A stretch of 54,761 bases of DNA from an uncultured bacterium (GCA_964634665.1 CAZWJZ010000002.1:1-54761), one strand, 5' to 3'. Counted from the stretch's first letter, positions 8,111 through 47,107 are shown. Program-made: numbers and translations. Notes: a model not told the origin generated them from the letters alone.

Positions 8111-8468
8111 ATTGTAAGAGTAGCTCTCTCTTCTAAGCCTAATAGGGCAGCTATTAACACCAAAACAGAGTCAATGGTAATCACCCCAACGCAATACAAA
8201 GAACTCGAGCACTATACTTTTGTTAAGTAACTATTCAGACTTAGGAGTCTATTAGTGGTCTTAGGGTACTATTGAAAGGCTGTCTAGGACGACTTATTTT
8301 AATGAGAAAGAGCATTTTAGTCTGGTAATTGATAAGATTTTGGGTTATTTTCTCATCTTGGAAGCTGTCCAGGACGTATTTTCTTGGGCTGAGTAGTTAC
8401 TTTGTTAAAGCTTAAGTCAGACTAAGTTTGTTATTAGTTGCTGTTGCTTTGTGTTGGAAGGAATCTTA

Positions 8469-9452
8469 ATGTCTTATTTACTTCGCGGGCTCGCCGCTAA
8501 TGGCAGTATTCGCGTTATTGCTGCAGATACAACGGCTTTGGTAGATGAAGCTCGACAACGGCACAGTACTACACCGTTAGCATCTGCTGCATTAGGTCGC
8601 ACCTTAACAGGTGCCCTTCTACTATCTCATGTGGTACTCAAAAATCATCAAGATAGACTCACCCTTCGCTTACGGGGTGATGGTCCTTTGGGTGGTGTGG
8701 TTGCAGATGCAGGTTTAGATGGCGCTGTAAGAGGCTATGTAAGTAACCCTAACTTAACGCTAGCTAACCGCAAAGATGGCAAGCTTGATGTGGGTAGAGC
8801 TATTGGTCAGGGTGACATAGAAATCATTCGTTCACATGCACCTTACGGTGACCCTTATAGCAGTAGCGTAAAGCTAGTAAGTGGTGAAATTGCTGAAGAC
8901 ATAGCTATGTTCTTAGCGCAATCAGAACAAATAGGCTCAGCTGTCCTTTTAGGTGTCTATGTTGAAGGTCAGCAAGTTAAACAGTCAGGTGGCGTGCTTT
9001 TACAAGCCCTACCAGGCGCAGAAGAAGCAGCCCTAACTTTATTAGAAGCAAACATAAAAGCTTTTGGGCAACTTACTGACGGCATGAGCCGTATGAGCAT
9101 GCTAGAAATACTCAATGAACTCTGCTGGGGTATGGGCTTTGAACTCTTAACAGATGACGCACTAGCCCTAAAGTTTGATTGCCGTTGTAGTGACGAAAAG
9201 GCCTTAGATGCCTTAGCTTACTTCAGCCCTGAAGAACGCCAAGATATGATTAGTCAAGATGGTGGTGCAGAAGTTGTGTGCCACTGGTGTAACGAAAAAC
9301 GTTGGTTAAACCCAGAGCAAATACAAAGCATTTCAAATAACGAAATACGCTGCCCTGACTGCCAAACCTTATGGTACAGAGAAGGTCAAGCCACCATGAT
9401 GAGAGATGACGAACGTTGTTCTTGTGGTCGCTTGGTCATGTTACCCGCTTAG
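8469..9452 (+). CDS. hslO: Hsp33 redox-regulated chaperone with an extra C-terminal Cys4 tail
   Basis: Hsp33 fold sequence with the CRC...CHWC zinc centre. GGAAGGA lies upstream of the ATG at 8469. An extra 39 aa contain CPDC...CSC. Confidence 0.9.
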   Translation: MSYLLRGLAANGSIRVIAADTTALVDEARQRHSTTPLASAALGRTLTGALLLSHVVLKNHQDRLTLRLRGDGPLGGVVADAGLDGAVRGYVSNPNLTLANRKDGKLDVGRAIGQGDIEIIRSHAPYGDPYSSSVKLVSGEIAEDIAMFLAQSEQIGSAVLLGVYVEGQQVKQSGGVLLQALPGAEEAALTLLEANIKAFGQLTDGMSRMSMLEILNELCWGMGFELLTDDALALKFDCRCSDEKALDALAYFSPEERQDMISQDGGAEVVCHWCNEKRWLNPEQIQSISNNEIRCPDCQTLWYREGQATMMRDDERCSCGRLVMLPA

Positions 9453-9471
9453 GTAAGATAAGCTTAAGTTG

Positions 9472-9503
9472 AAAGGCTGAGAACTAGATTCTCAGCCTTT
9501 TTT
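9472..9503 (+). terminator. Intrinsic terminator of hslO
   Basis: GGCTGAGAA / TTCTCAGCC stem followed by TTTTTT. Confidence 0.75.
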
Positions 9504-9531
9504 AGTAGTTCAATCAATTAAACAATCTTAA

Positions 9532-9559
9532 AGACGTACGTCTAACTTGACGTACGTTA
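9532..9559. promoter_or_regulatory. Two ACGTACGT-core palindromes; candidate operators
   Basis: AGACGTACGTCT (9532-9543) is a perfect 12-bp palindrome. TGACGTACGTTA (9548-9559) lies 16 bp centre to centre from it and overlaps the -35. Confidence 0.4.
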
Positions 9560-9576
9560 GATTAAACGTGCATAAT
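9547..9576 (+). promoter_or_regulatory. Promoter TTGACG-18-CATAAT of the NTPase cassette
   Basis: The -10 ends 7 nt before the ATG at 9584 and there is no SD, implying a leaderless mRNA. Confidence 0.5.
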
Positions 9577-9583
9577 GGTTTAT

Positions 9584-10759
9584 ATGAAATCAAACCCTGG
9601 TGGGCAAGTAGACCCACAAAACTTAATAGGTCGCGACCAACTCATAAAAGAAATATGGGACACACTCGAGCAGCAAAGCGTAGTCATGACAGCAGAACGT
9701 CGTATTGGTAAAACAAGCATTATGCAAAAAATGCAAGCAGAACCAAAAGAAAAATGGATACCCATATATCAAGACTTAGAGAAATACAGTTCAGCACAAG
9801 AATTTGCACAATCAGTTTATGAAATTCTAAAAACCTACCAAAACTTAAGTAAAACAGCTGAAAATTACTTACAAAACCTACGCCAAGCACTGGCGGGTTT
9901 CAAGTTTGGCGACATAGAAATACCTGAAGCAAAAGATATTCCGTGGCAAAAGCTTTTAACAAGCTCAATTACAGACTTAGTAACAGACCCAGACTGGAAT
10001 AAGTACAAACTTGTCTTCTTGTGGGATGAAATACCCTATATGCTCTCAAACATAAAAAACAAAGAAGGCGAAGAAGTTGCTAAACAAATACTCGACATCC
10101 TTCGCTCACTACGCCAAGAACAAAAAAACTTTCGCATAGTCATGACAGGCTCAATAGGCCTACACCACGTCATAATTGACCTAAAAGAAAAAGGCTACAG
10201 CACAGCACCAATAAATGACATGTATACAATAGAAGTTAACCCACTACATGAAAGATATGCCAAAGAGCTAGCAAAAAAATTAATAACAGGAGAAAACATA
10301 ACAATAGAGGGAGAAGTTCAAGAAGAAGTCATAAGCACATTAGTTGAACAAACTGACGCCTTTCCCTACTACATACACCACATCATAAAAACGCTAAAAA
10401 CAGCAACAAACCCTATAACAAAAGAAACCGTAGAAGAAGTAGTGAAACAACAACTAACAAACTCAGATGACCCATGGCAACTAAGACACTTCGAAGAACG
10501 CCTACCCACCTACTACGAAGGTGAAGACAAAATAGCTAAACTCATATTAGATGAACTTGCCGTTCAAGACAGCCCACAATCAGTCAAAGATATGCAAAAA
10601 AGCATAACAAGCCAAACAGCATTAAAAGACCTAGAACAACTACGCAAACTCTTAAGACTTATGGCGCAAGACCACTACCTAAACAAAAACACCGACAATA
10701 AATACAGCTTTCGCTTCTCACTCATAAAACGCTGGTGGAAACTCGAAAGAGACCTCTAA
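9584..10759 (+). CDS. AAA+/Arch_ATPase-like P-loop NTPase with a C-terminal winged-helix-like domain
   Basis: Walker A TAERRIGKTS, Walker B LVFLWDEIP, sensor IVMTGS. An alternative in-frame ATG at 9575 lies inside the -10 hexamer. Confidence 0.7.
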   Translation: MKSNPGGQVDPQNLIGRDQLIKEIWDTLEQQSVVMTAERRIGKTSIMQKMQAEPKEKWIPIYQDLEKYSSAQEFAQSVYEILKTYQNLSKTAENYLQNLRQALAGFKFGDIEIPEAKDIPWQKLLTSSITDLVTDPDWNKYKLVFLWDEIPYMLSNIKNKEGEEVAKQILDILRSLRQEQKNFRIVMTGSIGLHHVIIDLKEKGYSTAPINDMYTIEVNPLHERYAKELAKKLITGENITIEGEVQEEVISTLVEQTDAFPYYIHHIIKTLKTATNPITKETVEEVVKQQLTNSDDPWQLRHFEERLPTYYEGEDKIAKLILDELAVQDSPQSVKDMQKSITSQTALKDLEQLRKLLRLMAQDHYLNKNTDNKYSFRFSLIKRWWKLERDL

Positions 10760-12913
10760 ATGACCACCGAACCCCCAAAATACCTATCTGTCTTCACACC
10801 CAGCCAAACCAACCCAGAAGACCTAGAAGCCATATTTGTACAAAGACAAGACTACCTAAAAGACGCCATAGAACGCATAAAAGAAAGCGCAACCACAGGC
10901 AACAAACACCACCAACTCATAGTAGGCCAACGTGGCTCAGGCAAAACCAACCTAGTCACCCTACTCGTATACAGACTCGAGCAAGACCAAACACTAAAAG
11001 AGCAGTTACAAATAGCATGGCTAAATGAAGATGAAACCAGCGTAAAATTCTTAGACATCCTCTTAAGAATCTACCAAGCACTAAACAAACGCTACCCCAA
11101 GTACTACCCACAAAACACGCTAGAAGAAGCCTACGAAAAAACAGAAAAACAAGCACAAGACTACCTTGCTACAAGCATAGCAAGCAGCCTAAACCAAAAC
11201 AAAAAAACCCTACTCATAATCATAGAAAACCTAGATGCAGTCTTTGAAAGCATAGGTGACCAAGGCCAAAAACAACTACGAGCCTACATACAAGAAAACC
11301 CACACTTCAGCATTTTTGCCACTGCACAAAAACTCATAGATAACTTAACAAACCGCAAAGACCCCTTCTTTGGCTTCTTTCAAACAGAACACCTACAACC
11401 CCTAAACGAACAAGAAGCCACCCAACTCATAAGCAACATAGCAGACCTACAACACAAACCCAAGGTAACAGCATTCTTAAAAACACCCAAAGGCCAAGCA
11501 CGCATAAAAGCACTACACCACCTATCAGGCGGCAACCACCGCATGTACATAGTACTCTCACAATTCATAAATCAAGACAGTATAGATGCACTCGTACCAC
11601 CTTTTCTAAAAATGGTAGACGAACTCACCCCCTACTACCAAGAACGGCTAAGATGGCTACCCCCCCAACAACGCAAAATAATAGAACAACTAAGCAACAG
11701 CCGAACCACCATGACCGTAACCCAACTAGCCAAACGCCTATTTGCAAGCAACCAAACAACCTCAAAACAACTACAAGAACTACGCAACAAAGGCTACGTG
11801 CAATCACACAAAGACGGGCGTGAATCACACTATGAAATAAGTGAACCCCTCATGCGCATATGCACCGAAGTAAAAGAAAACCAAAGAAACGAACCCCTAG
11901 CTATACTCATAGACTTTATAAGAGCATGGTACGACAGCCAAGACCTAAACGAACGCCTGAAAAATAAAGCTATTTCAACAACAGCTAAATACTATTTAGA
12001 AGCAGCACTTGAAAAAAGCATGTCTTTAGAAAGGAAAATTAACAAACAACTAACCCTAACTGACAAGAGCTTAGCCAAAACACTTAACTCTTATGATACG
12101 AAGCAAAGTGAGGTAGAGGCTTTTGACGAAAAGATAGCTGATTTGACCCAAGTGATTGAGTTGAAAGATGCACCTGTTGAGCAAGTAGCTATTGCACTTT
12201 TGTATCGTGGTGTTAGTTATGGTCAGCTGGGTGAAACGGATAAAGAGATAGCTGATTACACTCAAGTGATTGAGTTGAAAGATGCACCTGTTGAGCAAGT
12301 AGCTATTGCACTTGTTGGTCGTGGTATAGGCTTTTTTGGTAAAAAAGAATATGTTTTGGCAAGTCAAGATTTAAGAGCAATTATTTTAAATTACACTTCT
12401 CATTATGAGCAAGTTCAACTTGCATATATGTGCTTGGCTGAACTAGAGCTTATACAGATGCATTGGACAGAAGCGTTACAATGCATTACTGAAGGGTTGA
12501 AAGTAATGCTTGATGACAATGATTCAAGCCGCTACAACTCTCAAGATATCATTGGCGCTTTGTTTACAACGACTCAAGCTACACAAGAGCGCACAGAGCG
12601 TATTACTGAAATGCTTCAAATTTACAAGAACCATGAGCAGGCGCTTGCTTCTTTGGGGTCAGGTCTGGTCGAGCATTTGGGTTCTTTATTTCAAGCAGAT
12701 GAATTACCTTTTAAAGATAATCTAGAGTCTTGGTTAGTTGCTTGGCAAGCAGCAAGTAAAGATATTGAAGGTTTAAGTGTTGCTATGCGCATTTTTGAAG
12801 TGGGTGTAGAGTTCTTGAAGTCTAAAGGTAAGCATGAAGGGGTTTTGTATACGTTGGTAGAGACTGAACGTAGTATTTTGAGGCAGGCTTTAGGGTTAGA
12901 TGAAGCTTCTTAA
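10760..12913 (+). CDS. ORC/Cdc6- or STAND-like P-loop NTPase with a winged HTH and C-terminal TPR-like repeats
   Basis: Walker A VGQRGSGKTNL, Walker B LLIIIENLD, wHTH MTVTQLAKRLFASNQTTSKQLQELRNKGYVQSHKDGRESHYEIS, and a repeated helical C-terminus. The start abuts the upstream stop (TAAATG). Confidence 0.7.
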   Translation: MTTEPPKYLSVFTPSQTNPEDLEAIFVQRQDYLKDAIERIKESATTGNKHHQLIVGQRGSGKTNLVTLLVYRLEQDQTLKEQLQIAWLNEDETSVKFLDILLRIYQALNKRYPKYYPQNTLEEAYEKTEKQAQDYLATSIASSLNQNKKTLLIIIENLDAVFESIGDQGQKQLRAYIQENPHFSIFATAQKLIDNLTNRKDPFFGFFQTEHLQPLNEQEATQLISNIADLQHKPKVTAFLKTPKGQARIKALHHLSGGNHRMYIVLSQFINQDSIDALVPPFLKMVDELTPYYQERLRWLPPQQRKIIEQLSNSRTTMTVTQLAKRLFASNQTTSKQLQELRNKGYVQSHKDGRESHYEISEPLMRICTEVKENQRNEPLAILIDFIRAWYDSQDLNERLKNKAISTTAKYYLEAALEKSMSLERKINKQLTLTDKSLAKTLNSYDTKQSEVEAFDEKIADLTQVIELKDAPVEQVAIALLYRGVSYGQLGETDKEIADYTQVIELKDAPVEQVAIALVGRGIGFFGKKEYVLASQDLRAIILNYTSHYEQVQLAYMCLAELELIQMHWTEALQCITEGLKVMLDDNDSSRYNSQDIIGALFTTTQATQERTERITEMLQIYKNHEQALASLGSGLVEHLGSLFQADELPFKDNLESWLVAWQAASKDIEGLSVAMRIFEVGVEFLKSKGKHEGVLYTLVETERSILRQALGLDEAS
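12132..12312 (+). repeat. 114-bp (38-codon) tandem duplication inside the NTPase-TPR gene
   Basis: AGATAGCTGATT..CAAGTGATTGAGTTGAAAGATGCACCTGTTGAGCAAGTAGCTATTGCACTT occurs at 12132 and again at 12246 with 3 mismatches in about 68 nt. Confidence 0.85.
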
Positions 12914-12937
12914 GAATTACCTTCCTTTGTGTTAAAC

Positions 12938-12964
12938 AAAAAACCGCAGCTTTAAAAGCTGCGG
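12938..12964 (-). terminator. Intrinsic terminator between convergent genes; strong on the minus strand, possibly bidirectional
   Basis: CCGCAGC-TTTAAAA-GCTGCGG, with AAAAAA on the plus side giving TTTTTT on the minus strand. Confidence 0.75.
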
Positions 12965-12986
12965 TTAGAGTTCAAGAAGCAAAGGT

Positions 12987-13619
12987 TTACTGAATAGCGT
13001 TTACATTTACATTACTAATAATTTCAAAGCCGTTCGGTAAACCCGCTAAAGCTTCATGTGAGAACAGCGCATTAACAGCAGTTACGTCTGTGGTTGCAAT
13101 AACGTAGGTGCGGTAGCTTTGACCCGGAGAAGCAAAACGAACTTGTGCAGTCCAGTCACCTGTTGCGCTTGCTGTTATTTCTTGCTGTGGGTAAACAATG
13201 GGTGGGTTACTAGCAGGGCTTTCTAAGACCAAAAAGTAACGCTCATTTTCTGCTGTGCGGCTATTTAGGCGTCCTTGCAGTTCAACCCAGCCGTCAGCAT
13301 CTTGTAGTAAAGCACCATTTGTGGGGCTCATAATGGCAGCGCGGTAATTACTAAAGTCGATTTCTGGGGTGACAACTTCAGAGCTAATGATTGGCGTTTC
13401 AACTGTGTCTAGTGTTCCTACAAGAGGCAGGCTTGGGGTGCTGCTTTCGGCTCTTACGTCACTAACTAAATCAGCATTTGTAGCGCTAGTACTAACCGTA
13501 GCTTGTATGGTGCTTGGGCGTCTACGGACATACTCATAGGCAAGTCCAAAAAGAACAATATAGGCAGCTAGTGCGATGGCTAACCAACCTGAAGGTGTAA
13601 TACGTCGTTGTTGCGTCAT
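12987..13619 (-). CDS. Single-pass membrane-anchored protein with an extracytoplasmic domain; function unknown
   Basis: MTQQRRITPSGWLAIALAAYIVLFGLAY anchor. The ATG at 13619 has AAGGAG upstream. The track ORF is extended 30 codons upstream. Confidence 0.6.
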   Translation of the reverse strand: MTQQRRITPSGWLAIALAAYIVLFGLAYEYVRRRPSTIQATVSTSATNADLVSDVRAESSTPSLPLVGTLDTVETPIISSEVVTPEIDFSNYRAAIMSPTNGALLQDADGWVELQGRLNSRTAENERYFLVLESPASNPPIVYPQQEITASATGDWTAQVRFASPGQSYRTYVIATTDVTAVNALFSHEALAGLPNGFEIISNVNVNAIQ

Positions 13620-13779
13620 GATGCTCCTTCTTACAATAATACGGCAAAGTGCCGAATAGCTTAAACTGATTATAAAGAAAAGCTCGAGCTTTTTGCCCTC
13701 AGGCATCACGTTTTATGGTCAACATGAAATAATTGTGAATAGAATTTTTGGTACAACTAGGAAAAAGAAAAGGTGATGT

Positions 13780-14862
13780 ATGCAAACTGACTTAGTTATC
13801 AATAAGTCTGATATTCGTGAGTTTAAATTTACTAAGCTCGAGCCTGAACGCTTAGCAGATGGGCAGGTTCGTTTGGTTTTGGATAGTTTTGCGGTTACGG
13901 CTAATAACATTACCTACGCTGCTACAGGGCATAGTTTTAAGTACTGGCAGTTTTTTCCTAGCACGGAGGGTTGGGGTAAGTTGCCTGTTTGGGGCTTTGC
14001 GAGCATAGCTGAGTCTAAGCATGCTGAGCTTAAGATTGGGGAGCGTATTTATGGTTATTTTCCTCTAGCGACAGAGCTTGTTGTGACTGCGTCTAAAGTA
14101 ACGGATGGGGGGTTTTATGATGCTGCTGAGCATCGTCAAGATTTAAATCCTGTTTACAATAGTTATGTTCGTACGCATGCAAGTGAAGGCTTTGCGGTTG
14201 AGCATAATCACTTGAATTCGCTTTTGCGCCCCATGTTCATGACTTCTTTTATGATTGATGATCAGCTTGAAGATAATGCTTTTTTTGATGCTGAAGACAT
14301 TGTTATGTCAAGCGCATCTAGTAAAACAGCATTAGGTAGCGCTTTTTTGCTTAAGAAAAACCGTGCAGAGCGTAAGCCGTACAGCATTATAGCTTTAACC
14401 TCTCAAGCTAATAAAGCTTTTGTGCAGAGTCTAAACTACTACGATGTGGTTCTAACTTATGACGAATTAACTAAGCTCGAGTCTGGTCGCAAGACTGCTT
14501 ATATTGATTTTGCGGGTAATGGACAGTTACGTAAAGATATTCATAATCACTATGCAGATAACTTAAAGCATAGCAGTATGATTGGTTTGGCACATTGGCA
14601 GCAGGCGGGTAAAAGGGAGGCTCTGCCGGGGGTAAAACCAAGTTTTTTCTTTGCACCAACCCAAATACAAAAACGAATGCAAGATTGGGGGCGAGAGGGT
14701 TATCAGGCAAAACTAAATGAAGCGTGGTTGGGCTTTATTGAAACGGCAGACACGTGGTTAGATGTAACTGAAGGGCAAGGGGAAGCAGCCATTAGTCAGG
14801 TTTATAAAGCTATGCTTAACAATAGTGCAGACCCAAAAAAAGGCTACATTTTAAGCTTTTAG
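13780..14862 (+). CDS. Conserved hypothetical protein, DUF2855-like / MDR-dehydrogenase-like fold
   Basis: 360 aa with AAGGTGA RBS. The family name comes from recollection of N-terminal similarity only. Confidence 0.55.
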   Translation: MQTDLVINKSDIREFKFTKLEPERLADGQVRLVLDSFAVTANNITYAATGHSFKYWQFFPSTEGWGKLPVWGFASIAESKHAELKIGERIYGYFPLATELVVTASKVTDGGFYDAAEHRQDLNPVYNSYVRTHASEGFAVEHNHLNSLLRPMFMTSFMIDDQLEDNAFFDAEDIVMSSASSKTALGSAFLLKKNRAERKPYSIIALTSQANKAFVQSLNYYDVVLTYDELTKLESGRKTAYIDFAGNGQLRKDIHNHYADNLKHSSMIGLAHWQQAGKREALPGVKPSFFFAPTQIQKRMQDWGREGYQAKLNEAWLGFIETADTWLDVTEGQGEAAISQVYKAMLNNSADPKKGYILSF

Positions 14863-15377
14863 GGTTCTTCAAAGACTTCTGTTTCATCAGGAGCATAGAA
14901 ATCAATTTGCTCTAACACAGCTTTAACTATGTCACTCGGAAAGCCGCGTCTTGCTAAAAAAGCGTAACTCTTAGCGTATCTTTTTTGCGGTTCGGCTTTC
15001 AAAATACGCCACATGGTTTTATCAAGCACCCTCTGTGCAGCCTCAATTTGGCTGTGCTTATCTAAAGGCTCGAGTGTTTTTTCTATAACTTCTGTGCTGA
15101 CGCCTTTTTGTTTGAGTTCTTGCTTTAAAGCGTTGCTGCCTTTGCGTTGTTGGCGGCTTCTTATGTAGGAAGCTGCGAACATTTCGTCATCTACAAATTT
15201 GAGTTCAACAAGGCGTGCCATGACTTTTTCTATGATCTCTTCTTCGGCTTCTTTTTTCTTTAGCTTGTCCCTGAGTTGCTTTTTGGTGTAGGCTTTGCGA
15301 GCTAAAAGCCACAAGACATAATTCCAGCTTCGTTTGTAGTCATAGATTTTTTTTGGCTTTAGCGCTTGCTCGGTCAT
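14859..15377 (-). CDS. recX: Recombination regulator RecX
   Basis: Three-repeat helical pattern with FVDDEMFAASYIRSRQQRKGSNALKQELKQKGV. Confidence 0.8.
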   Translation of the reverse strand: MTEQALKPKKIYDYKRSWNYVLWLLARKAYTKKQLRDKLKKKEAEEEIIEKVMARLVELKFVDDEMFAASYIRSRQQRKGSNALKQELKQKGVSTEVIEKTLEPLDKHSQIEAAQRVLDKTMWRILKAEPQKRYAKSYAFLARRGFPSDIVKAVLEQIDFYAPDETEVFEEP

Positions 15378-15416
15378 TTGCTAACACAATAGCGTGCTTG
15401 CTGTCTTGCTTGCGTT

Positions 15417-16355
15417 ATGCTAGTTAGAGTGACACTTAAAGACCGCTTTTTAAATAAGGATGAACGCGCACTTGCTCGGGCTATTTCTCTAGTTGAGTCA
15501 GCTTCGCCTGAAGGTCAAGCGTTCCTTAGGGCCTTAAGAACAGCAACCTCAAACAGCCATATTGTGGGTATAACGGGTTCACCTGGCAGCGGTAAGAGTA
15601 CTTTAACGGATCAACTCATAGCGCAAGTTAGAGCGCAAGATAAAACAGTTGCCATAATTGCGGTTGACCCTACCAGTCCTTACTCAGGGGGCGCTATTTT
15701 AGGGGATCGTATTCGCATGATGCGTTGGCACCAAGACCCTAAGGTGTTTATTCGGTCCATGGCGACCCGTGGTCACTTGGGAGGCTTAGCTGCAGCTAGC
15801 TTGCAGGTAGTCGCCCTCTTAGAGGCTTACGGATTTGACTATATTTTTATAGAAACGGTCGGGGTAGGGCAGTCAGAAGTAGATATTGTAAGAGTGGCAG
15901 ATACCACCCTGCTGGTACTCACGCCAGGGCAAGGTGACGGAGTGCAGGCCTTCAAGGCAGGCATTATGGAAATAGCAGATGTCTTTGCCATAAACAAATA
16001 TGACCTTGCAGGCGCGCAGCGCTTAAAAAGAGAAATCAAAGCTGCCCTTGAATTAAGTCACCCAGAAGCAAATGACTGGTGGCCCATCATTCAAGAAACC
16101 ATAGCTTCAAAAGGACAATATAGTGACAAGCTGTTTGAAGCTCTAGCAAAACACCATCAGTTCTTAGAAGAAACAGGCAAGCTCGAGCTTAAAAAGCGTG
16201 AACGAATGCGTTTTGAGATTTCTAGTTTACTTAGTGAGCAAGTTCGTTTGGCTTTGCAGGCTAAAGAAGATGGCTTTATTGAAGCGGTTCTAAAAGGTGA
16301 AAAGACAGTACTTGCGGCAGCGCAAGAGCTTCTTGCCTCTAAAGATGAATCTTAA
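15417..16355 (+). CDS. meaB: MeaB/ArgK-type G3E GTPase (methylmalonyl-CoA mutase accessory)
   Basis: GSPGSGKST P-loop, AVDPTSPYSGGAILGDRIRM, ETVGVGQSE, NKYD. Confidence 0.85.
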   Translation: MLVRVTLKDRFLNKDERALARAISLVESASPEGQAFLRALRTATSNSHIVGITGSPGSGKSTLTDQLIAQVRAQDKTVAIIAVDPTSPYSGGAILGDRIRMMRWHQDPKVFIRSMATRGHLGGLAAASLQVVALLEAYGFDYIFIETVGVGQSEVDIVRVADTTLLVLTPGQGDGVQAFKAGIMEIADVFAINKYDLAGAQRLKREIKAALELSHPEANDWWPIIQETIASKGQYSDKLFEALAKHHQFLEETGKLELKKRERMRFEISSLLSEQVRLALQAKEDGFIEAVLKGEKTVLAAAQELLASKDES

Positions 16356-22357: not shown

Positions 22358-23371
22358 ATGTCTGATTCGTCTGAAAATCGTGTTTTACTGCCTTGGCGTC
22401 AAGAGGCTTTTCCTGTTGATTGGGTTGCTGAATTTAAGCGTGATGCGCCTTTGCATTTAGAGGTTGGTTTTGGTGATGGGCGCTTTACGGTTCGTCGTGC
22501 TTTGGCTCATAAGGATGAGCAGTTTATTGGTCTTGAAATTTCGAGTGCTAGTTTGCAGCGAGGTTGGAAGAAGATTAACCGTGAAGGTCTATCTAATGTA
22601 CGGCTTATTAAGTTGGGTGCGCAGTTTGCCGTGCGGCATTTGTTTGCAGCTGATTCTCTTGACTCTATGGTGGTTAATTTTCCTGACCCGTGGCCTAAAG
22701 AGAAGCATGAGAAGTACAGGCTTTTACAGGACTCATTTTTTAGGCTGGCTGCAACTAGGCTTAAAACGGGGGGCTGTATTAATTTAGCAACTGATCACCC
22801 TGAGTACTTAGCGTTTGCGCAAGAGCAAGGCAAGCTTAGTGGCTTTTATGATTTGCTGTCAGCAGAGCCACCTGAAGCTGTTTTTGAAACCAAATACGCC
22901 CTGAAATGGAAAGGGCAAGGAAAGCCTCTTTTTTATCAAGTTTTTCGTTATAACGGAACAAGTAGTGAAGATTACCCTATTCTTGAAAGGCCAAGCATTA
23001 TGCCGCATGCACTTATACAAGGACGACTCCCCGAAAATCAAGCACTCGAGCAGCTCGAGTTTAGTAAAGTTGTGCTGCCTTATGCGCAGGGTCATGTGAT
23101 TTTGCATGAGGTTATGCGTAGTTTGGGTTCAGATGAGGATATTGGTACGCATAAAGATAAGTGGATTGTTCGTGCCACGATTGATGAGCCTGATCTTAAG
23201 CAGCAGCTTCTGGTTGCGGTTAAGCGCCGTACGGATGAGGAGCTTATTGTTAGACTTGAACCGTTTGGAGATCCTGTTATTACGAAGACAACGAGGGGTG
23301 CGGTTCATGCGGTGACGGAGTGGTTACTTACTTTGCCTTCTGATATTAGGGTTTTAGAGCGTAATTACTAA
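22358..23371 (+). CDS. trmB: tRNA (guanine46-N7)-methyltransferase, long form with a roughly 130-aa C-terminal extension
   Basis: EVGFGDGRF, GLEIS and VNFPDPWPKEKHEKYRLL motifs. Confidence 0.85.
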   Translation: MSDSSENRVLLPWRQEAFPVDWVAEFKRDAPLHLEVGFGDGRFTVRRALAHKDEQFIGLEISSASLQRGWKKINREGLSNVRLIKLGAQFAVRHLFAADSLDSMVVNFPDPWPKEKHEKYRLLQDSFFRLAATRLKTGGCINLATDHPEYLAFAQEQGKLSGFYDLLSAEPPEAVFETKYALKWKGQGKPLFYQVFRYNGTSSEDYPILERPSIMPHALIQGRLPENQALEQLEFSKVVLPYAQGHVILHEVMRSLGSDEDIGTHKDKWIVRATIDEPDLKQQLLVAVKRRTDEELIVRLEPFGDPVITKTTRGAVHAVTEWLLTLPSDIRVLERNY

Positions 23372-23383
23372 GAAGGAAAAAAT

Positions 23384-23514
23384 GAGAAGATTGGAAAATT
23401 GGGAAATTCAAAAAGCTGAGTATTATAAACGTTTTTCATTTTTCGCTTTTCGCTTTTCACTTTTCACTTTCTTCCTTCCACTTTTCACTCTCCACTTTTC
23501 ACTTTTCACTCTCA
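23384..23514 (+). repeat. Intergenic element: GAGAAGATTGGAAAATT head plus about 12 tandem heptads of (R)CTTTTC/CACTTTT type
   Basis: 7-nt register from 23431 to 23514: GTTTTTC ATTTTTC GCTTTTC GCTTTTC ACTTTTC ACTTTCT TCCTTCC ACTTTTC ACTCTCC ACTTTTC ACTTTTC ACTCTCA. Confidence 0.85.
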
Positions 23515-23527
23515 CTACTTTTTCCTT

Positions 23528-24052
23528 ATGATGGCCTACAATCCTGCTGAAGTACTTAAATTCCGTGAGCAGAAAGCTTTGTTTTTTCGGCGTAATCGTA
23601 ATGCTCCTTTAAGGGGTAATGAGGTGGCAGGCATGCGTTATTTTTCGGTTTCAGCTGATTATGTATTTAATGCAAGACTTGAGCTTTTTGAGGCTGAGCA
23701 GCGGGTTTGGTTGGCGACTTCTACAGGGGATGCGGAGGCTTACTTTCGTTACGCTCGAGCTTGCTTTGTGTTTGAGGCTGAGCAGCATTGCTTGACTGTC
23801 TATTTGCCTGAGGGTAGTGTGGATGCGTCTAGGGTGTTTGTGCCTTTTACAGATGCAACTAATGCTGTTAGTAGTTATGAGGGGGGGCGTTATTTGGAGG
23901 CGTCACCTGAGGGGGATGAGCTTAAGCTGGATTTTAATTTTGCTTATAATCCTTATTGTGCTTATAGTGAGCGTTTTCGTTGTCCTATTCCGCCGGTTGA
24001 AAATGCTTTGGGGTTTTTTGTTAAGGCAGGTGAAATGAATTATGAGCGATAA
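23528..24052 (+). CDS. DUF1684-domain protein
   Basis: GGRYLEA, NFAYNPYCAY and RCPIPPVEN motifs. No SD; preceded directly by the heptad tract. Confidence 0.8.
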   Translation: MMAYNPAEVLKFREQKALFFRRNRNAPLRGNEVAGMRYFSVSADYVFNARLELFEAEQRVWLATSTGDAEAYFRYARACFVFEAEQHCLTVYLPEGSVDASRVFVPFTDATNAVSSYEGGRYLEASPEGDELKLDFNFAYNPYCAYSERFRCPIPPVENALGFFVKAGEMNYER

Positions 24053-24791
24053 AGCTTTGTTTTCTACTGAGTTTTTGAGCGTGCCGCATGCCTTTAGTAC
24101 GCGCTTGTCGGGTGTGAGTGAGGGTGTTTTTGCTAGTTTTAATTTGGGCTTGAGTACAGGTGATGAGCCTGAGCGGGTGGCGCAAAATAGAGAGCAGGTG
24201 TTTCGCTCTTTTGGGGTGACTAAGGCGCAGGTTTGTGGTTTGCATCAGGTGCATAGTGCCACGGTGCTAGAAGCTCGAGCGAGTTGGTTTGAGCTTGAGG
24301 CAGATGCATCTGTTACTAATGACCCTAACTTGCTACTCGTGATTGGTACGGCAGATTGTTTGCCTATTTTGTTTCATGATCCTGTTAAGCACGTGGTTGC
24401 TGCGGCACATGCTGGCTGGCGCGGTACGGTTGCTGGGGTTAGTCAGAATGTGATTCTTAAAATGCAGTCGCTTTATGGTTCTAAGGCAAGCGATGTTCAT
24501 GCGGTCATTGGGCCTTGCATTAAAGGGGCTTGTTATCAGGTAGGGCAAGAAGTGATTGATGCGTTTATAAAGGCTGGCTTTCCTGAATATGTTTATGAAA
24601 GCGATGCTGAGGGGCGTTATTTGCTTGATTTGGTAAAGGCTAATACATATCTTTTAAGGCAGTCTGGTGTTACGCAGATTTATGATGTGCAGCAGTGCAC
24701 ACATTGTGATGCAACTACGTTTTATTCGCATAGGCGAGATGGCTTAAAGCGGGGTAGTCACTGGTCAGCGATTAAGCTAGCCCACACTTGA
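24042..24791 (+). CDS. pgeF: Peptidoglycan editing factor PgeF / YfiH laccase-domain protein
   Basis: HQVHS, ADCLPILF, AHAGWRGT, CYQVG and YSHRRDG motifs. Confidence 0.85.
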   Translation: MSDKALFSTEFLSVPHAFSTRLSGVSEGVFASFNLGLSTGDEPERVAQNREQVFRSFGVTKAQVCGLHQVHSATVLEARASWFELEADASVTNDPNLLLVIGTADCLPILFHDPVKHVVAAAHAGWRGTVAGVSQNVILKMQSLYGSKASDVHAVIGPCIKGACYQVGQEVIDAFIKAGFPEYVYESDAEGRYLLDLVKANTYLLRQSGVTQIYDVQQCTHCDATTFYSHRRDGLKRGSHWSAIKLAHT

Positions 24792-28685: not shown

Positions 28686-29648
28686 ATGAAGGTTCTTGTT
28701 ACAGGTGCGGCTGGCTTTATTGCGAGTCATGTCAGTGAAATGCTGAGTCGCCGTGGTGATTCGGTGATAGGTGTTGATAATTTTAATGATTACTATGATG
28801 TTGCTAAGAAACTAAAAAATGCTAAAACGCTAGAAACGAAGCATGATGTTACGGTTATTAAGGCTGATATTCGTGATCGTGAGCGCATGATGGCTCTTTT
28901 TGAGGAGCATCAGTTTGACGCGGTAGCGCATATTGCAGCTATGGCGGGTGTGCGTAATTCTGTTGCAAATCCTGCTTTATATATGGATGTTGATCTGGTG
29001 GGTACGCAGCATCTCATGGACGCAGCTCGTGAGTTTGGGGTTGCCAATTTTGTTTTTGCTTCTACCTCATCTATTTATGGTGATACCACGCAAATACCGT
29101 TTGTTGAAACAGATAGTGCTGCGCAGCCACCTCAACCTTATGCTGCTGCAAAGCGGGCTGCTGAGTTACTTGGTTTTACTTATAATAAACTCTTTAAGCT
29201 GAATTTTACGGCTGTTCGTTTCTTTACGGTTTATGGTCCGCGGGGTCGCCCTGACATGATGCCTTATTTGTTGGCTGAAAGTATTTATAAGGGTAAGGAA
29301 ATTCCGCTTTATGAGGGTGATTTTAAGCGTGACTGGACTTATGTTGAAGATACCGCGAAGGGTGTTATTTTGGCTTTAGATAAGCCTTTAGGCTATGAGA
29401 TTATTAATTTGGGTAAAGGACAGCCTGAACCTCTTTTAGACTTTATTGCTGAAATGGAAGGCATCGCAGGTAAAAAAGCTAATTTCATTTCGAAGCCTAA
29501 ACTCGAGGCTGATATGTACGTGACTTACGCAAATATTGAAAAAGCGCAACGCTTATTAGGCTTTAACCCTCAGGTATCAATGCAAGAGGGTGTAAGGCGC
29601 TTTTGGGATTGGTATGTCGCTGAGCAAGAGAATTTAGTTTTGGTTTGA
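28686..29648 (+). CDS. NAD-dependent nucleotide-sugar epimerase (UDP-glucuronate 4-epimerase-like)
   Basis: VTGAAGFIASHV Rossmann motif, YAAAK catalytic YxxxK, GGAG RBS. Confidence 0.8.
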   Translation: MKVLVTGAAGFIASHVSEMLSRRGDSVIGVDNFNDYYDVAKKLKNAKTLETKHDVTVIKADIRDRERMMALFEEHQFDAVAHIAAMAGVRNSVANPALYMDVDLVGTQHLMDAAREFGVANFVFASTSSIYGDTTQIPFVETDSAAQPPQPYAAAKRAAELLGFTYNKLFKLNFTAVRFFTVYGPRGRPDMMPYLLAESIYKGKEIPLYEGDFKRDWTYVEDTAKGVILALDKPLGYEIINLGKGQPEPLLDFIAEMEGIAGKKANFISKPKLEADMYVTYANIEKAQRLLGFNPQVSMQEGVRRFWDWYVAEQENLVLV

Positions 29649-32396: not shown

Positions 32397-33092
32397 TTAT
32401 GAAGTAGGCACGCCACCAAGAAGCTCTTCAGGTTCAGCACTACCCCCATCAGGCTCAAGACTCACCCCAATAAACGCATAAGCCTCATAAGGAACTTCTA
32501 AGAGCGTCCTGTCAGACAAACCCAAAGAAACCCGCTCACCACTAGGACTATCGCCCCAAGCCTGATAGGTAAAGCCTCTGCTAGGCGCAGTGCGAAAAAC
32601 AAACAAAGCCCGACCATCTGACAGCGTTAAGACGCTACCTAAACGCTCACCTTGCGCGTCAAGCAACTGCTGCGAACTCACATCGGGCCTAGATAGCCAA
32701 CCCGCAACCTTACGCTGCTCAGCTTTAGTCACTAAATAATTTTGACGCTGCTGAAAACCCCACAAAAGCCCAGAGGCAAACAACAGTAAAGAAGCAGCCA
32801 TAGCAAAAGCCTGCCAAGCAAAACGCTTAGGTTTTAAGCTGATAACATGAGTAGCTTCAGACCTAGTAGGTTCAGAAGGTTCAGCAAGCCTAGCTTGAAT
32901 AGCAGCCCAAGCACCCGCAGGCGCCAGCACTTGAGGTGCAGATTCAGCCAAATGCACAAAACTAGCTTGAAGTGCATGCAACTCAGCAAGACAAAGCTCA
33001 CAACTAGACAAGTGAAGCTCGAGTGTTTCTTGCTCTTTGCTACTAAGCTCATCAAGGGCGTAACTTAAAAGAAGATCAGTAGGATGACTCAT
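32397..33092 (-). CDS. Anti-sigma factor (zf-HC2 N-terminus, one TM, RskA-like C-terminus)
   Basis: HLSSCELCLAELHAL. 4-nt overlap with the upstream sigma gene. Confidence 0.75.
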   Translation of the reverse strand: MSHPTDLLLSYALDELSSKEQETLELHLSSCELCLAELHALQASFVHLAESAPQVLAPAGAWAAIQARLAEPSEPTRSEATHVISLKPKRFAWQAFAMAASLLLFASGLLWGFQQRQNYLVTKAEQRKVAGWLSRPDVSSQQLLDAQGERLGSVLTLSDGRALFVFRTAPSRGFTYQAWGDSPSGERVSLGLSDRTLLEVPYEAYAFIGVSLEPDGGSAEPEELLGGVPTS

Positions 33093-46090: not shown

Positions 46091-47107
46091 CTATACTTTT
46101 GTAACTTGAGCGTTTTCTAAATAATCAACCCAAGGGTTTTCAGGGAATTCTTTTAACCAGTCTAGTTTTTTGAAGTATTTACTGCAGTACCAGCAGGGGC
46201 TTTTGTCGTCTTCGTTGACACCATTTGCAAAGTGGGCCTTTTTGATTCGTTTTAGTTTCTCGTTGCCTGCTACGAGTTTTAAGAAGCCTTCTGTGAAACT
46301 CATGCTTTCTAGGTTGCCTACTATGTCGTCTTGGCTGGCTATGGGGCCGTGGCTACTTAAGTGACAGCATTTGGTTATGTTGCCTTGTGAGTCTATGTTG
46401 ACTTCCATCATGTTTAGCGGTGCGCAAGGAAAGAGTTGCTCTGTGCTAAAGCCTGGTGCCATGGCTATGGGGAGTGTTTTGGCGTAGTCTGCTTGTAGTT
46501 GCCAGATTTGTGCTTCTAGGTCTTTGCGTTCTGTTAGGCTTAAATCCCAGCCGTTGGCGGTTGTTATGGGGGAGTGCATAAGGTGCCCGAAGCGCAGGCC
46601 GCTGCTACCTAAACTTTGTATGAGTTCAGCGAGGTCTTTTAGTTCATGTTGATTGTGTTTGGTTATGACCATGTTGTTTGTAAAAGGAATGTTTAGGTCT
46701 TTGGCTAGCTTCATGGCATTTATGACTTGCTTATAAGAGTGCTTGCCGCGTAGTGCGCCGTGGGTTTCTTGACTGGCACCGTCTAGGCTGAAGGTTATTT
46801 GCTCTAAGTTAGCTAGGTAAGGCAAGATTTTTTTGTGGGAGCTTGCAAAGTTATAGCCGTTGGTAACAAAGCTAAAGCGGTAGGTGTGGGCTTTGACTTT
46901 GGCGAGAAGTTCATCGAAGTACTTGTAAACGGTGGGGTCGCCCCCTGTGAAGGTAAGGTGTTCAAAGCCTAGGCGTTTTGCTTGATTAAAGACGTTTTCT
47001 AGTAGCTCTAAACTTAAGTCATCATTGCCACCATGACGCCCTGAGAAGCAGTGCTGGCAGGCTAAGTTGCAGCGATTTGTGAGTTCTATGACAATGCGTT
47101 TACTCAT
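46091..47107 (-). CDS. Radical SAM enzyme with a SPASM-like Cys-rich C-terminal domain
   Basis: CNLACQHC (CX3CX2C) at residues 12-19, GGDP, and C-terminal CAPL..CCHLS..CWYC cysteines. Confidence 0.88.
   Translation of the reverse strand: MSKRIVIELTNRCNLACQHCFSGRHGGNDDLSLELLENVFNQAKRLGFEHLTFTGGDPTVYKYFDELLAKVKAHTYRFSFVTNGYNFASSHKKILPYLANLEQITFSLDGASQETHGALRGKHSYKQVINAMKLAKDLNIPFTNNMVITKHNQHELKDLAELIQSLGSSGLRFGHLMHSPITTANGWDLSLTERKDLEAQIWQLQADYAKTLPIAMAPGFSTEQLFPCAPLNMMEVNIDSQGNITKCCHLSSHGPIASQDDIVGNLESMSFTEGFLKLVAGNEKLKRIKKAHFANGVNEDDKSPCWYCSKYFKKLDWLKEFPENPWVDYLENAQVTKV

Follow-up and report, generated by a model that had tools for sequence, protein, structure and literature searches.

What kind of system is formed by two adjoining nucleoside triphosphatase (NTPase) genes, when both products carry a winged helix, neither carries a recognisable effector and their common promoter is overlapped by palindromes? 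The question is raised by positions 9532-12964 of a 54,761-nt stretch of DNA from an uncultured bacterium (GCA_964634665.1 CAZWJZ010000002.1:1-54761; the whole stretch is referred to as the window), where open reading frame 1 (ORF1) and ORF2 follow each other on the plus strand. The initial annotation saw in them a two-gene cassette, possibly repressed by its own winged helix-turn-helix (wHTH) and possibly serving defence. We consider it on balance likely, with appreciable room for doubt, that the cassette is a horizontally spread, self-contained operon of two colinear NTPase switch proteins, self-regulated through an array of boxes at its promoter.

Relatives of the cassette were found in ~298 of 185,579 species genomes (~0.16%; one genome per species was scanned), spread over at least nine bacterial phyla. 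The best 80 of these ~298 comprise ~34 Planctomycetota, ~16 Verrucomicrobiota and Kiritimatiellales, ~19 Gamma- and Betaproteobacteria and five Cyanobacteria, the remainder being affiliated with Entotheonella, Acidobacteriota and Armatimonadota. At the level of protein clusters, ORF1 has more than 1,300 homologues (~45-53% identity) and ORF2 more than 660 (45-64% identity), most of the latter being 800-1200 aa long because they contain more TPR units; the source annotations of the homologues read ‘hypothetical’, ‘TPR protein’, ‘Cdc6-like ATPase’ or ‘ArsR/MarR regulator’. A same-strand ORF2 homologue directly follows ORF1 in 82 of 83 related loci, the lone exception being a contig end, and the junctions between the two genes range from an overlap (-11 nt) to a short gap (+4 nt). 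All-against-all clustering of the neighbours within 6 kb of the loci revealed no third conserved gene, so the description of the cassette as a self-contained two-gene module stands.

The pair travels with its own control region. In the window three boxes (A, B and C, Table 1) form an array with an exact 16-bp period, reading GACGTACGT at 9533, GACGTACGT at 9549 and AACGTGCAT at 9565; in the palindrome TGACGTACGTTA at 9548-9559, 10 of 12 positions match. The motif GACGTACGT was counted three times in the window against 0.09 expected, all three in the cassette array, and the two-box pattern at 16-bp spacing four times, also against 0.09 expected. The array precedes ORF1 in nearly every related locus, whatever the phylum: when at most one mismatch is allowed, the density of GACGTACGT over the 200 nt preceding ORF1 is 82 times that in the rest of the loci, and in 24 of 26 cases one box follows the next at exactly 16 bp. 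The family consensus, for which 74 of the 83 loci could be anchored, is aACaTACGTcAanA / TTGACGTACGTcaaat / TTGACGTATaaT, or in short form aACaTACGTcA / TTGACGTACGTcA / TTGACGTATaaT; its core reaches 1.3-2.0 bits and information falls to about zero beyond it. Both promoter elements are contained in this consensus. The -35 starts box B, and box C is a half-box fused to the -10, which takes the place of the second half. The overall box type is TGACGTACGTCA, with an embedded -35 TTGACG and a TATAAT-like -10.

These recurrences bear on the simplest alternative, namely that two unrelated ATPase genes happen to adjoin behind ordinary palindromes. The number of sigma-70-like sites in 9300-13100 (6) is no higher than in the shuffled control (6.3 expected), and because of this the promoter taken alone is not significant. 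The recurrence of pair and operator array in 80 or more loci across phyla, together with the excess of boxes in the window, nevertheless effectively refutes chance, and we give this explanation virtually no credence.

The promoter itself (TTGACG, an 18-nt spacer, CATAAT) is the top sigma-70-like site within 9300-13100, with 10 of 12 positions, and 7 nt separate its -10 from the ATG at 9584. In 28 loci, about a third, box B begins 33-37 nt ahead of the start codon; they include the window, most of the Verrucomicrobiota and Betaproteobacteria, several Gammaproteobacteria and three Cyanobacteria. Since this spacing leaves no room for a leader, leaderless mRNA is predicted for all 28, with transcription in the window predicted to start at about 9583-9584. 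A leaderless-type promoter with its start at the ATG, as suggested in the initial annotation, therefore gains support from a geometry shared with 27 other loci. The other loci have leaders of 15-60 nt or longer. In three Planctomycetota loci (L058, L061 and L055) the array lies ~230-260 nt upstream of ORF1, which may point to a long leader or to an additional small gene before ORF1.

Boxes of other sequence occur in more distant modules. The divergent cassette L051 has ATTGTACAATA boxes, again with a 16-bp period. On the Clostridium tagluense plasmid pCM022-183 (L088, 7880-10761) a pair 22-24% identical to ours, with a 530-aa ORF2-like gene devoid of TPR units, has the palindrome TTGACAAAACAATTTTTGTCAA over its own -35, and a plasmid of Methylomonas sp. 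(L095, 4890-6197) carries a lone ORF1-like gene (~23% identity) behind TTGTACAACAA boxes. As these distant plasmid modules have boxes of their own, the design principle reaches beyond the family studied here. Some genomes harbour two cassettes, among them Candidatus Entotheonella palauensis (L023, L043) and one Thermosynechococcaceae metagenome-assembled genome (MAG; L065, L074). The Entotheonella copies differ in their boxes (TTATCGTACGT and TTGACATACGT) and have distinct ORF2 recognition-helix sequences, which would allow each copy to be regulated independently by itself.

ORF2 combines an NTPase module, a wHTH and repeats. Its motifs GxRGxGKT and ENLD fall on invariant columns of the family alignment, as does the sensor motif. 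We take the Walker B IIIENLD to be comparable with the hhhhDGxDE form of NACHT proteins, and GGNHR presumably corresponds to the sensor-2 GDAR of Cdc6. Profile scores for the NTPase part are modest: ORF2 is borderline for AAA_16 (32.4 bits, cutoff 32.6), and the Pfam models NACHT, nSTAND5, nSTAND6 and NPHP3_N, which belong to the STAND class (signal transduction ATPases with numerous domains), gave sub-threshold matches only. The wHTH scores better against its Pfam cutoffs over aa 300-365 (MarR_2 27.0/27, HTH_24 24.7/21.9, HTH_5 of ArsR type 23.5/22); NCBIfam NF033788 matched with an E-value of 1.6e-11 and 43.8 bits, short of its whole-protein cutoff of 55. The recognition region is near-invariant in the family (FAT.QTISSQLKDLR.KGYV). 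In Foldseek searches with the AlphaFold2 (AF2) model, the first ~400 aa matched Orc1/Cdc6 structures, including the DNA-bound heterodimer 2qby, as well as NB-ARC, NRC4, CED-4 and Apaf-1; the remainder of the model is all-helical. The initial description of a 717-aa protein with these Walker motifs and an ArsR/MarR-type wHTH is thus confirmed by sequence, profiles and invariant columns alike.

The TPR region is less extensive in this copy than had been proposed. The repeats are real, comprising two 38-aa units, and the only Pfam TPR match is weak (aa 477-506); the region of ~280 aa initially assigned to them is not, its remainder being a helical C-terminal domain. This domain has no Pfam match, and an exhaustive phmmer search returned 196 matches, every one of them at the C-terminus of a protein of this family; the idea that it is shared with other architectures was therefore rejected. 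At the nucleotide level, tandem TPR units of 102 or 114 nt were detected in 27 of the 83 loci, with up to 13.3 copies and 91% identity, and variation between units is confined mainly to a few positions of an A-L-x-x-R-G-x-x stretch. From its sequence, the array has the look of a surface that binds a ligand and evolves quickly. One of two syntenic strain variants (L091, 10001-12849; L090, 10001-12832) has its ORF2 split within the TPR region into 725 and 230 aa, which may reflect a frameshift or an altered repeat number.

ORF1 is, as modelled, a bare Arch_ATPase-like module, in which a P-loop domain is joined to a helical domain and then to a winged helix. Its Walker A AERRIGKTS (9692-9718) and Walker B LVFLWDE occupy invariant alignment columns, and the match with the Pfam family ATPase_2/Arch_ATPase (PF01637; E 1.8e-7, 31.6 bits) lies just below the gathering cutoff of 33.2. 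The AF2 model is of good quality, with a predicted local distance difference test score (pLDDT) of 84.6 and a predicted template modelling score (pTM) of 0.82. Its best structural match is 2qen (E 7.6e-11, query/target TM 0.64/0.71), followed by 2fna (E 7.9e-10, 0.60/0.66) and then by plant NLR NB-ARC modules, RuvB, MalT, ORC2, RFC and Avs4. Motifs, a corrected start and fold matches hence agree with the protein of ~391 aa with a C-terminal winged helix seen at first. Aligned with the N-terminal 370 aa of ORF2, ORF1 is colinear, the alignment being weak (hhalign E 0.024). By motifs and fold matches both proteins contain the STAND module of Walker A and B, helical domain and winged helix, and ORF2 alone adds the C-terminal repeat sensor; the layout of NTPase, winged helix and repeat sensor initially called STAND-like holds as a STAND/Orc-like arrangement.

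The fold matches and the regular 16-bp period together recall origins of replication, and an Orc1/Cdc6-like initiator pair with iteron-like repeats, serving the replication or maintenance of an integrated or degraded mobile element, was considered. Orc1/Cdc6 structures are indeed among the best matches of ORF2. It is the -35 and -10, however, and not an AT-rich unwinding element, with which the boxes coincide exactly. Genes for an integrase, a relaxase, partition or any other mobile-element function are not conserved in the vicinity, the plasmid relatives are only ~23% identical, and the NCBIfam orc1/cdc6 model (TIGR02928) scored 20.9 bits on ORF2 against a cutoff of 181.3. We regard an initiator as very improbable.

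Taken with the promoter, the two proteins suggest how an operon of paired switches could control itself. The cassette's own winged helix would bind the three boxes, either dimerised or within an oligomer whose formation depends on nucleotide; the ORF2 wHTH, a prime candidate because its recognition region is near-invariant, would be the likelier binder, possibly jointly with ORF1. Occupied boxes would exclude RNA polymerase, and the operon would thereby repress itself. Given a near-consensus promoter and leaderless mRNA, expression would depend little on the host, and a portable promoter and start usable in many hosts would fit the spread across phyla. The TPR array and the C-terminal domain of ORF2 may bind a protein or peptide ligand. 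By analogy with STAND/Orc-type switches, binding of ligand and ATP would then lead to assembly with ORF1, altered DNA binding, relief of self-repression and triggering of the output. Self-repression by a cassette-encoded winged helix is probably the best explanation of the control region, because the -35 and -10 of a near-consensus promoter lie inside palindromic boxes which travel only with the cassette. The early proposal that the palindromes are an operator for the cassette's wHTH, although concerned with a putative function, is well supported by the cross-phylum array.

The same architecture could be read as a MalT/AfsR-like pair of signal-sensing transcription factors, with a regulon elsewhere in the genome and its own promoter as one target. 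The combination of a nucleotide-binding oligomerisation domain (NOD), a DNA-binding domain and a TPR sensor agrees with this, as do MalT among the fold matches, repeated boxes overlapping the -35 in the manner of MalT or SARP boxes, and the housekeeping character of the neighbourhoods. It is harder to reconcile with the finding that no further box array exists in the window or in the ±10 kb flanks of the 83 loci, that the neighbours are never conserved, and that an occurrence in so small and phylum-scattered a fraction of species genomes is unusual for a physiological regulator; moreover, a near-consensus promoter calls for repression and not for activation. We judge a MalT-like pair rather unlikely. 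A search of the region against Rfam yielded one sub-threshold chance match only, and no RNA element was recognised.

Several points weigh against the self-regulated, paired-switch operon that we favour. Either protein may supply the binder, the winged helix of ORF1 being as conserved as the wHTH of ORF2, and the co-variation between boxes and recognition helices is no more than suggestive and confounded by phylogeny. In principle the boxes might serve activation, or a host factor might occupy them. Packing of the ORF2 domains is unreliable because the model has a low pTM (0.46, with a pLDDT of 78). No enzyme-like effector was found with Pfam, NCBIfam, PADLOC, PHROGs, a PDB sequence search or Foldseek on both AF2 models. 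Finally, housekeeping genes make up most of the 117 immediate neighbours pooled from 30 loci and defence genes only a few of them, and the same prevails in six loci inspected singly. The description as a self-regulated pair of switches holds whether the output is defence or MalT-like regulation.

Whether the cassette protects its host is a separate question. In an anti-phage or anti-plasmid system, ORF2 would be an Avs-like pattern-recognition STAND protein whose TPR array and C-terminal domain detect a foreign protein. ORF1 would serve as its helper or as the effector, for instance in an abortive infection brought about by depleting ATP, by binding DNA or by shutting transcription off. The sparse and patchy distribution across phyla is consistent with such a role, and so are the accessory insertion at a variable site adjoining hslO, TPR repeats that are internally conserved with localised hypervariable positions, as in NLR sensors, and fold matches that include NLR resistosomes and Avs4. 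A two-gene STAND NTPase pair has been predicted earlier (PMC8195603). In the Thiocystis locus (L002) the cassette is surrounded by a PARIS-like AAA_21+DUF4435 pair, a reverse transcriptase-ATPase pair, toxin-antitoxin genes and transposases.

On the other side, the searches returned NTPase, winged-helix and TPR folds only, in keeping with the early remark that no effector domain is recognisable; a cryptic effector was accordingly rejected. PADLOC gave no family match, its hits covering only the wHTH (Csa3, CasR) or the P-loop (mad8, 1.8e-4), which bears out the initial impression that no named defence system applies. Membership in MADS through mad8 was rejected, the match being to the P-loop alone and MADS being an eight-gene operon. 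The cassette is absent from IMG/VR viral contigs and from phage records, its operator array from all 2.9 million viral contigs of that collection, and on plasmids only the relatives at ~23% identity were seen. The immediate neighbours in 30 loci are mostly housekeeping, as described, and in a published census only 198 of 589 STAND clades were defence-associated (PMC13581612). The defence reading of the initial annotation is thus not supported so far. The evidence as it stands neither supports nor excludes a defence role, which we hold to be a minority possibility, and as an account of the whole cassette anti-phage or anti-plasmid defence is likewise doubtful. If a role is to be named, the likeliest, put forward tentatively, is an immune-like or conflict sensor that would act via DNA binding or ATP turnover and not via a fused enzyme. 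The fuller version is more speculative and in our view improbable: a previously unrecognised family of immune-type sensors, spread across phyla and lacking a fused effector, in which two cooperating NTPases, a DNA-binding TPR receptor and its bare helper, would assemble on DNA in a nucleotide-driven manner and impose transcriptional or nucleoid-level arrest from a host-independent expression unit made up of near-consensus promoter, leaderless mRNA and self-operator.

The site next to hslO was inspected in relatives. HslO of the window is 81% identical to that of a Trueperaceae MAG, and the window was placed in Trueperaceae (Deinococcota) on this ground. Conservation at a syntenic core-genome position, which would speak for a housekeeping gene pair, was not seen: no cassette adjoins hslO in three Trueperaceae relatives (HslO 78-84% identical), each of them with different neighbours at this site, so an accessory or defence reading stays alive. 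In the closest relative (P0242, Logan ERR4592245, 7515 nt), with HslO 94% identical and the same upstream LacI/ABC synteny, the contig stops 226 nt after hslO, exactly where the cassette begins in the window; this end may mark a variable site at which the assembly broke off. Genes downstream of hslO differ in all four relatives examined. One of the Trueperaceae relatives (L093, 3533-7822, plus strand) encodes a different STAND protein of 1429 aa (nSTAND1, AAA_16, WD40) two genes upstream of hslO. In a betaproteobacterial locus (L089) the cassette is located between a 94-aa malate synthase C-terminal fragment (8454-8738, minus strand) and a full malate synthase G (13804-16023, minus strand), and the target gene seems to have had its 3' end duplicated by the insertion.

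Table 1 Positions of the cassette genes, their domains and the flanking and regulatory elements in the window
Feature	Position	Strand	Description
hslO intrinsic terminator	9471-9506	+	hairpin 9471-9501 and U-tract; -18.3 kcal/mol, z = -4.3; upstream boundary of the cassette
Box A	9532-9543		perfect palindrome AGACGTACGTCT; corresponds to family box A aACaTACGTcA
Box B	9547-9559		TTGACGTACGTTA; opens with the -35 TTGACG (9547-9552); most conserved unit, 1.4-2.0 bits per position
Box C	9563-9576		degenerate TAAACGTGCATAAT; 16 bp past box B; holds the -10 CATAAT (9571-9576)
ORF1	9584-10759	+	391 aa; Arch_ATPase-like AAA+ NTPase, helical domain, C-terminal winged helix
A+C-rich segment	9584-12050	+	coding-strand skew, third-position A+C 0.70-0.97; abrupt end inside ORF2
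ORF2	10760-12913	+	717 aa; NTPase, ArsR-type wHTH, TPR-like repeats, helical C-terminal domain
ORF2 NTPase module	10760-11650	+	Walker A GQRGSGKT 10925-10948, Walker B IIIENLD 11213-11236, GGNHR sensor-2-like
ORF2 ArsR/MarR-type wHTH	11657-11875 (aa 300-372)	+	profile matches, invariant residues; candidate operator-binding domain
TPR-like repeats	12129-12356	+	two 114-nt (38-aa) units, 90% identical over 83 nt
ORF2 C-terminal all-helical domain	12392-12913 (aa 545-717, ~170 aa)	+	family-specific
Convergent-gene terminator	12942-12966	-	perfect 11-bp-stem hairpin, U-tract; downstream boundary of the cassette

Within 9453-12990 the two plus-strand genes are bracketed by two hairpins (9471-9501 and 12942-12966), and the cassette does lie, as first stated, between the hslO terminator and a convergent one. 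The second hairpin was assigned to the convergent gene 12987-13709 because its U-tract is on the minus strand only. The back-to-back arrangement with a TAAATG junction was likewise verified (ctc TAA ATG acc, 10759/10760, zero gap). The automatic listing begins ORF1 further upstream (9575..10759); since all 26 aligned homologues begin with MK[AST]NPGGQ, we place the true start at the ATG 9584. The first eight residues of ORF1 (aa 1-10 correspond to 9584-9613) are near-invariant across phyla, yet predicted to be disordered (pLDDT ~40), and the N-terminus of ORF2 likewise has a conserved disordered motif, SVFTPSxT. These N-termini could be peptide ligands of the TPR domain, or features linked to leaderless translation.

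The nucleotide composition of this copy deserves separate mention. The 5' 2.5 kb of the cassette had been reported as extreme, with about 73% A+C on the coding strand and many ATA and CTA codons. The extremeness and the codon usage are evident (ATA accounts for 50 of 63 Ile codons and CTA for 42 of 89 Leu codons), whereas the figure is lower, 68% over 9584-12000 and up to 71% in 600-nt windows, and the skew is not family-wide. Third-position A+C is 78% in ORF1 (A 0.52, C 0.27, G 0.08, T 0.14) and 88% in the 5' part of ORF2 (to nt 12000: A 0.50, C 0.375, G 0.04, T 0.08). It is 0.70 where ORF1 begins, reaches 0.85-0.97 in ORF2 and drops within ~100 nt, at ~12000-12080, to 0.25-0.5 (T 0.40, G 0.22). 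This switch just precedes the two TPR-like units, and the closest homologues are unchanged across it. Amino acids with A/C-rich codons are 3.7-4.6 standard deviations (sd) over the family mean, typical replacements being V/L to I, R to Q or K, and F to Y; all family-invariant residues are kept.

A family trait or donor signature was rejected as the cause, homologues having a third-position A+C of ~0.5; two apparent exceptions (L034, L082) sit in regions that are A+C-rich throughout. A replication-strand effect was rejected too, since host genes on the same strand span 0.17-0.78. Across the window as a whole, the host genes vary from 0.17 to 0.75 independently of strand, as exemplified by 22358-24791 and 28686-29648 (plus) and 32397-33092 and 46091-47107 (minus). 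Ordinary genes are found at the G+T-rich extreme (TrmB-like methyltransferase, DUF1684, YfiH-like, epimerase, anti-sigma factor), and a radical-SAM gene at the A+C-rich one. A similar spread exists in the close Trueperaceae relative L092 (sd 0.10), and not in L093 (sd 0.04). Ideas for the skew of the cassette include deamination linked to antisense transcription, a recombination junction before the sensor part and selection for structure-free A+C mRNA. In a Trueperaceae lineage with unusual strand asymmetry from gene to gene, it is a separate puzzle on mutation or mRNA selection.

If the proposed reading is correct, the family is large and unnamed, and the cassette is a horizontally moved module that imports its own regulation, with promoter, operator and leaderless start kept from Planctomycetota and Verrucomicrobiota to Cyanobacteria and Deinococcota. 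STAND/Orc-like switches would then operate in an obligate pair of unlike partners, much as in the sensor-helper pairs of NLR proteins, and would offer a testable pairing of operator and winged helix as well as a candidate mechanism of defence or signalling without a classical effector. Searches of the literature by domain, operator sequence and protein accession found no description of the family. It is an uncharacterised variant of the STAND/Orc-like NTPase-sensor theme, set apart by an obligate NTPase partner and by a conserved self-operator that moves with the genes.

These marks are best seen against the closest known systems. With Avs1-5 and bNACHT proteins the cassette shares a P-loop NOD with helical and winged-helix subdomains, a C-terminal TPR-like sensor of varying copy number, a patchy, horizontally transferred distribution and fold similarity to NLR resistosomes and Avs4. 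Unlike them, it has no nuclease, protease, TIR or other effector domain, fused or adjoining, its winged helix is a DNA-binding domain of canonical ArsR type, which would bind to the conserved operator, and it has an obligatory second NTPase gene, no Avs match in PADLOC and no evident bias towards defence islands in the loci inspected. STAND transcription factors (MalT/LAL, AfsR/SARP-NB-ARC-TPR, GutR) resemble it in an ATP- and ligand-controlled NOD, a TPR-type sensor, a DNA-binding domain and repeated promoter boxes, and the MalT structure 8bob was among the fold matches. In contrast to MalT, LAL and SARP proteins, the DNA-binding domain of ORF2 is an internal ArsR-type wHTH (aa 300-372), where those proteins have a LuxR or SARP domain at a terminus. 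Within the window and the flanks of the 83 loci, the one target detected is the cassette's own promoter, whose geometry suggests repression, and there is a partner NTPase and a patchy, accessory distribution.

Orc1/Cdc6 proteins likewise join AAA+ to a DNA-binding winged helix and form heteromeric assemblies on repeated DNA, as is proposed for the cassette, and the sensor-2-like GGNHR of ORF2 and a high rank in the fold search add to the likeness; the repeats of the cassette, however, are promoter elements and not an origin, ORF2 has a TPR sensor, and its profile score is far under the cutoff. The archaeal Arch_ATPases (PF01637; PAB2304 = 2qen, SSO1545 = 2fna) agree with ORF1 in fold, size and the order of AAA+, helical and C-terminal winged-helix domains. 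They are proteins of no known function and are not described as paired, whereas ORF1 is bacterial, has a conserved N-terminal MKxNPGGQ and is always trailed by ORF2. An operon of two STAND-class NTPase genes also makes up the counter-invader system that Kaur et al. (2021, PMC8195603) predicted for nSTAND2, with links to GT4 and further effector domains; the cassette differs from it in having no effector, in that nSTAND2 is not among the 25 best Pfam families for ORF2, and in possessing a wHTH with an operator of its own.

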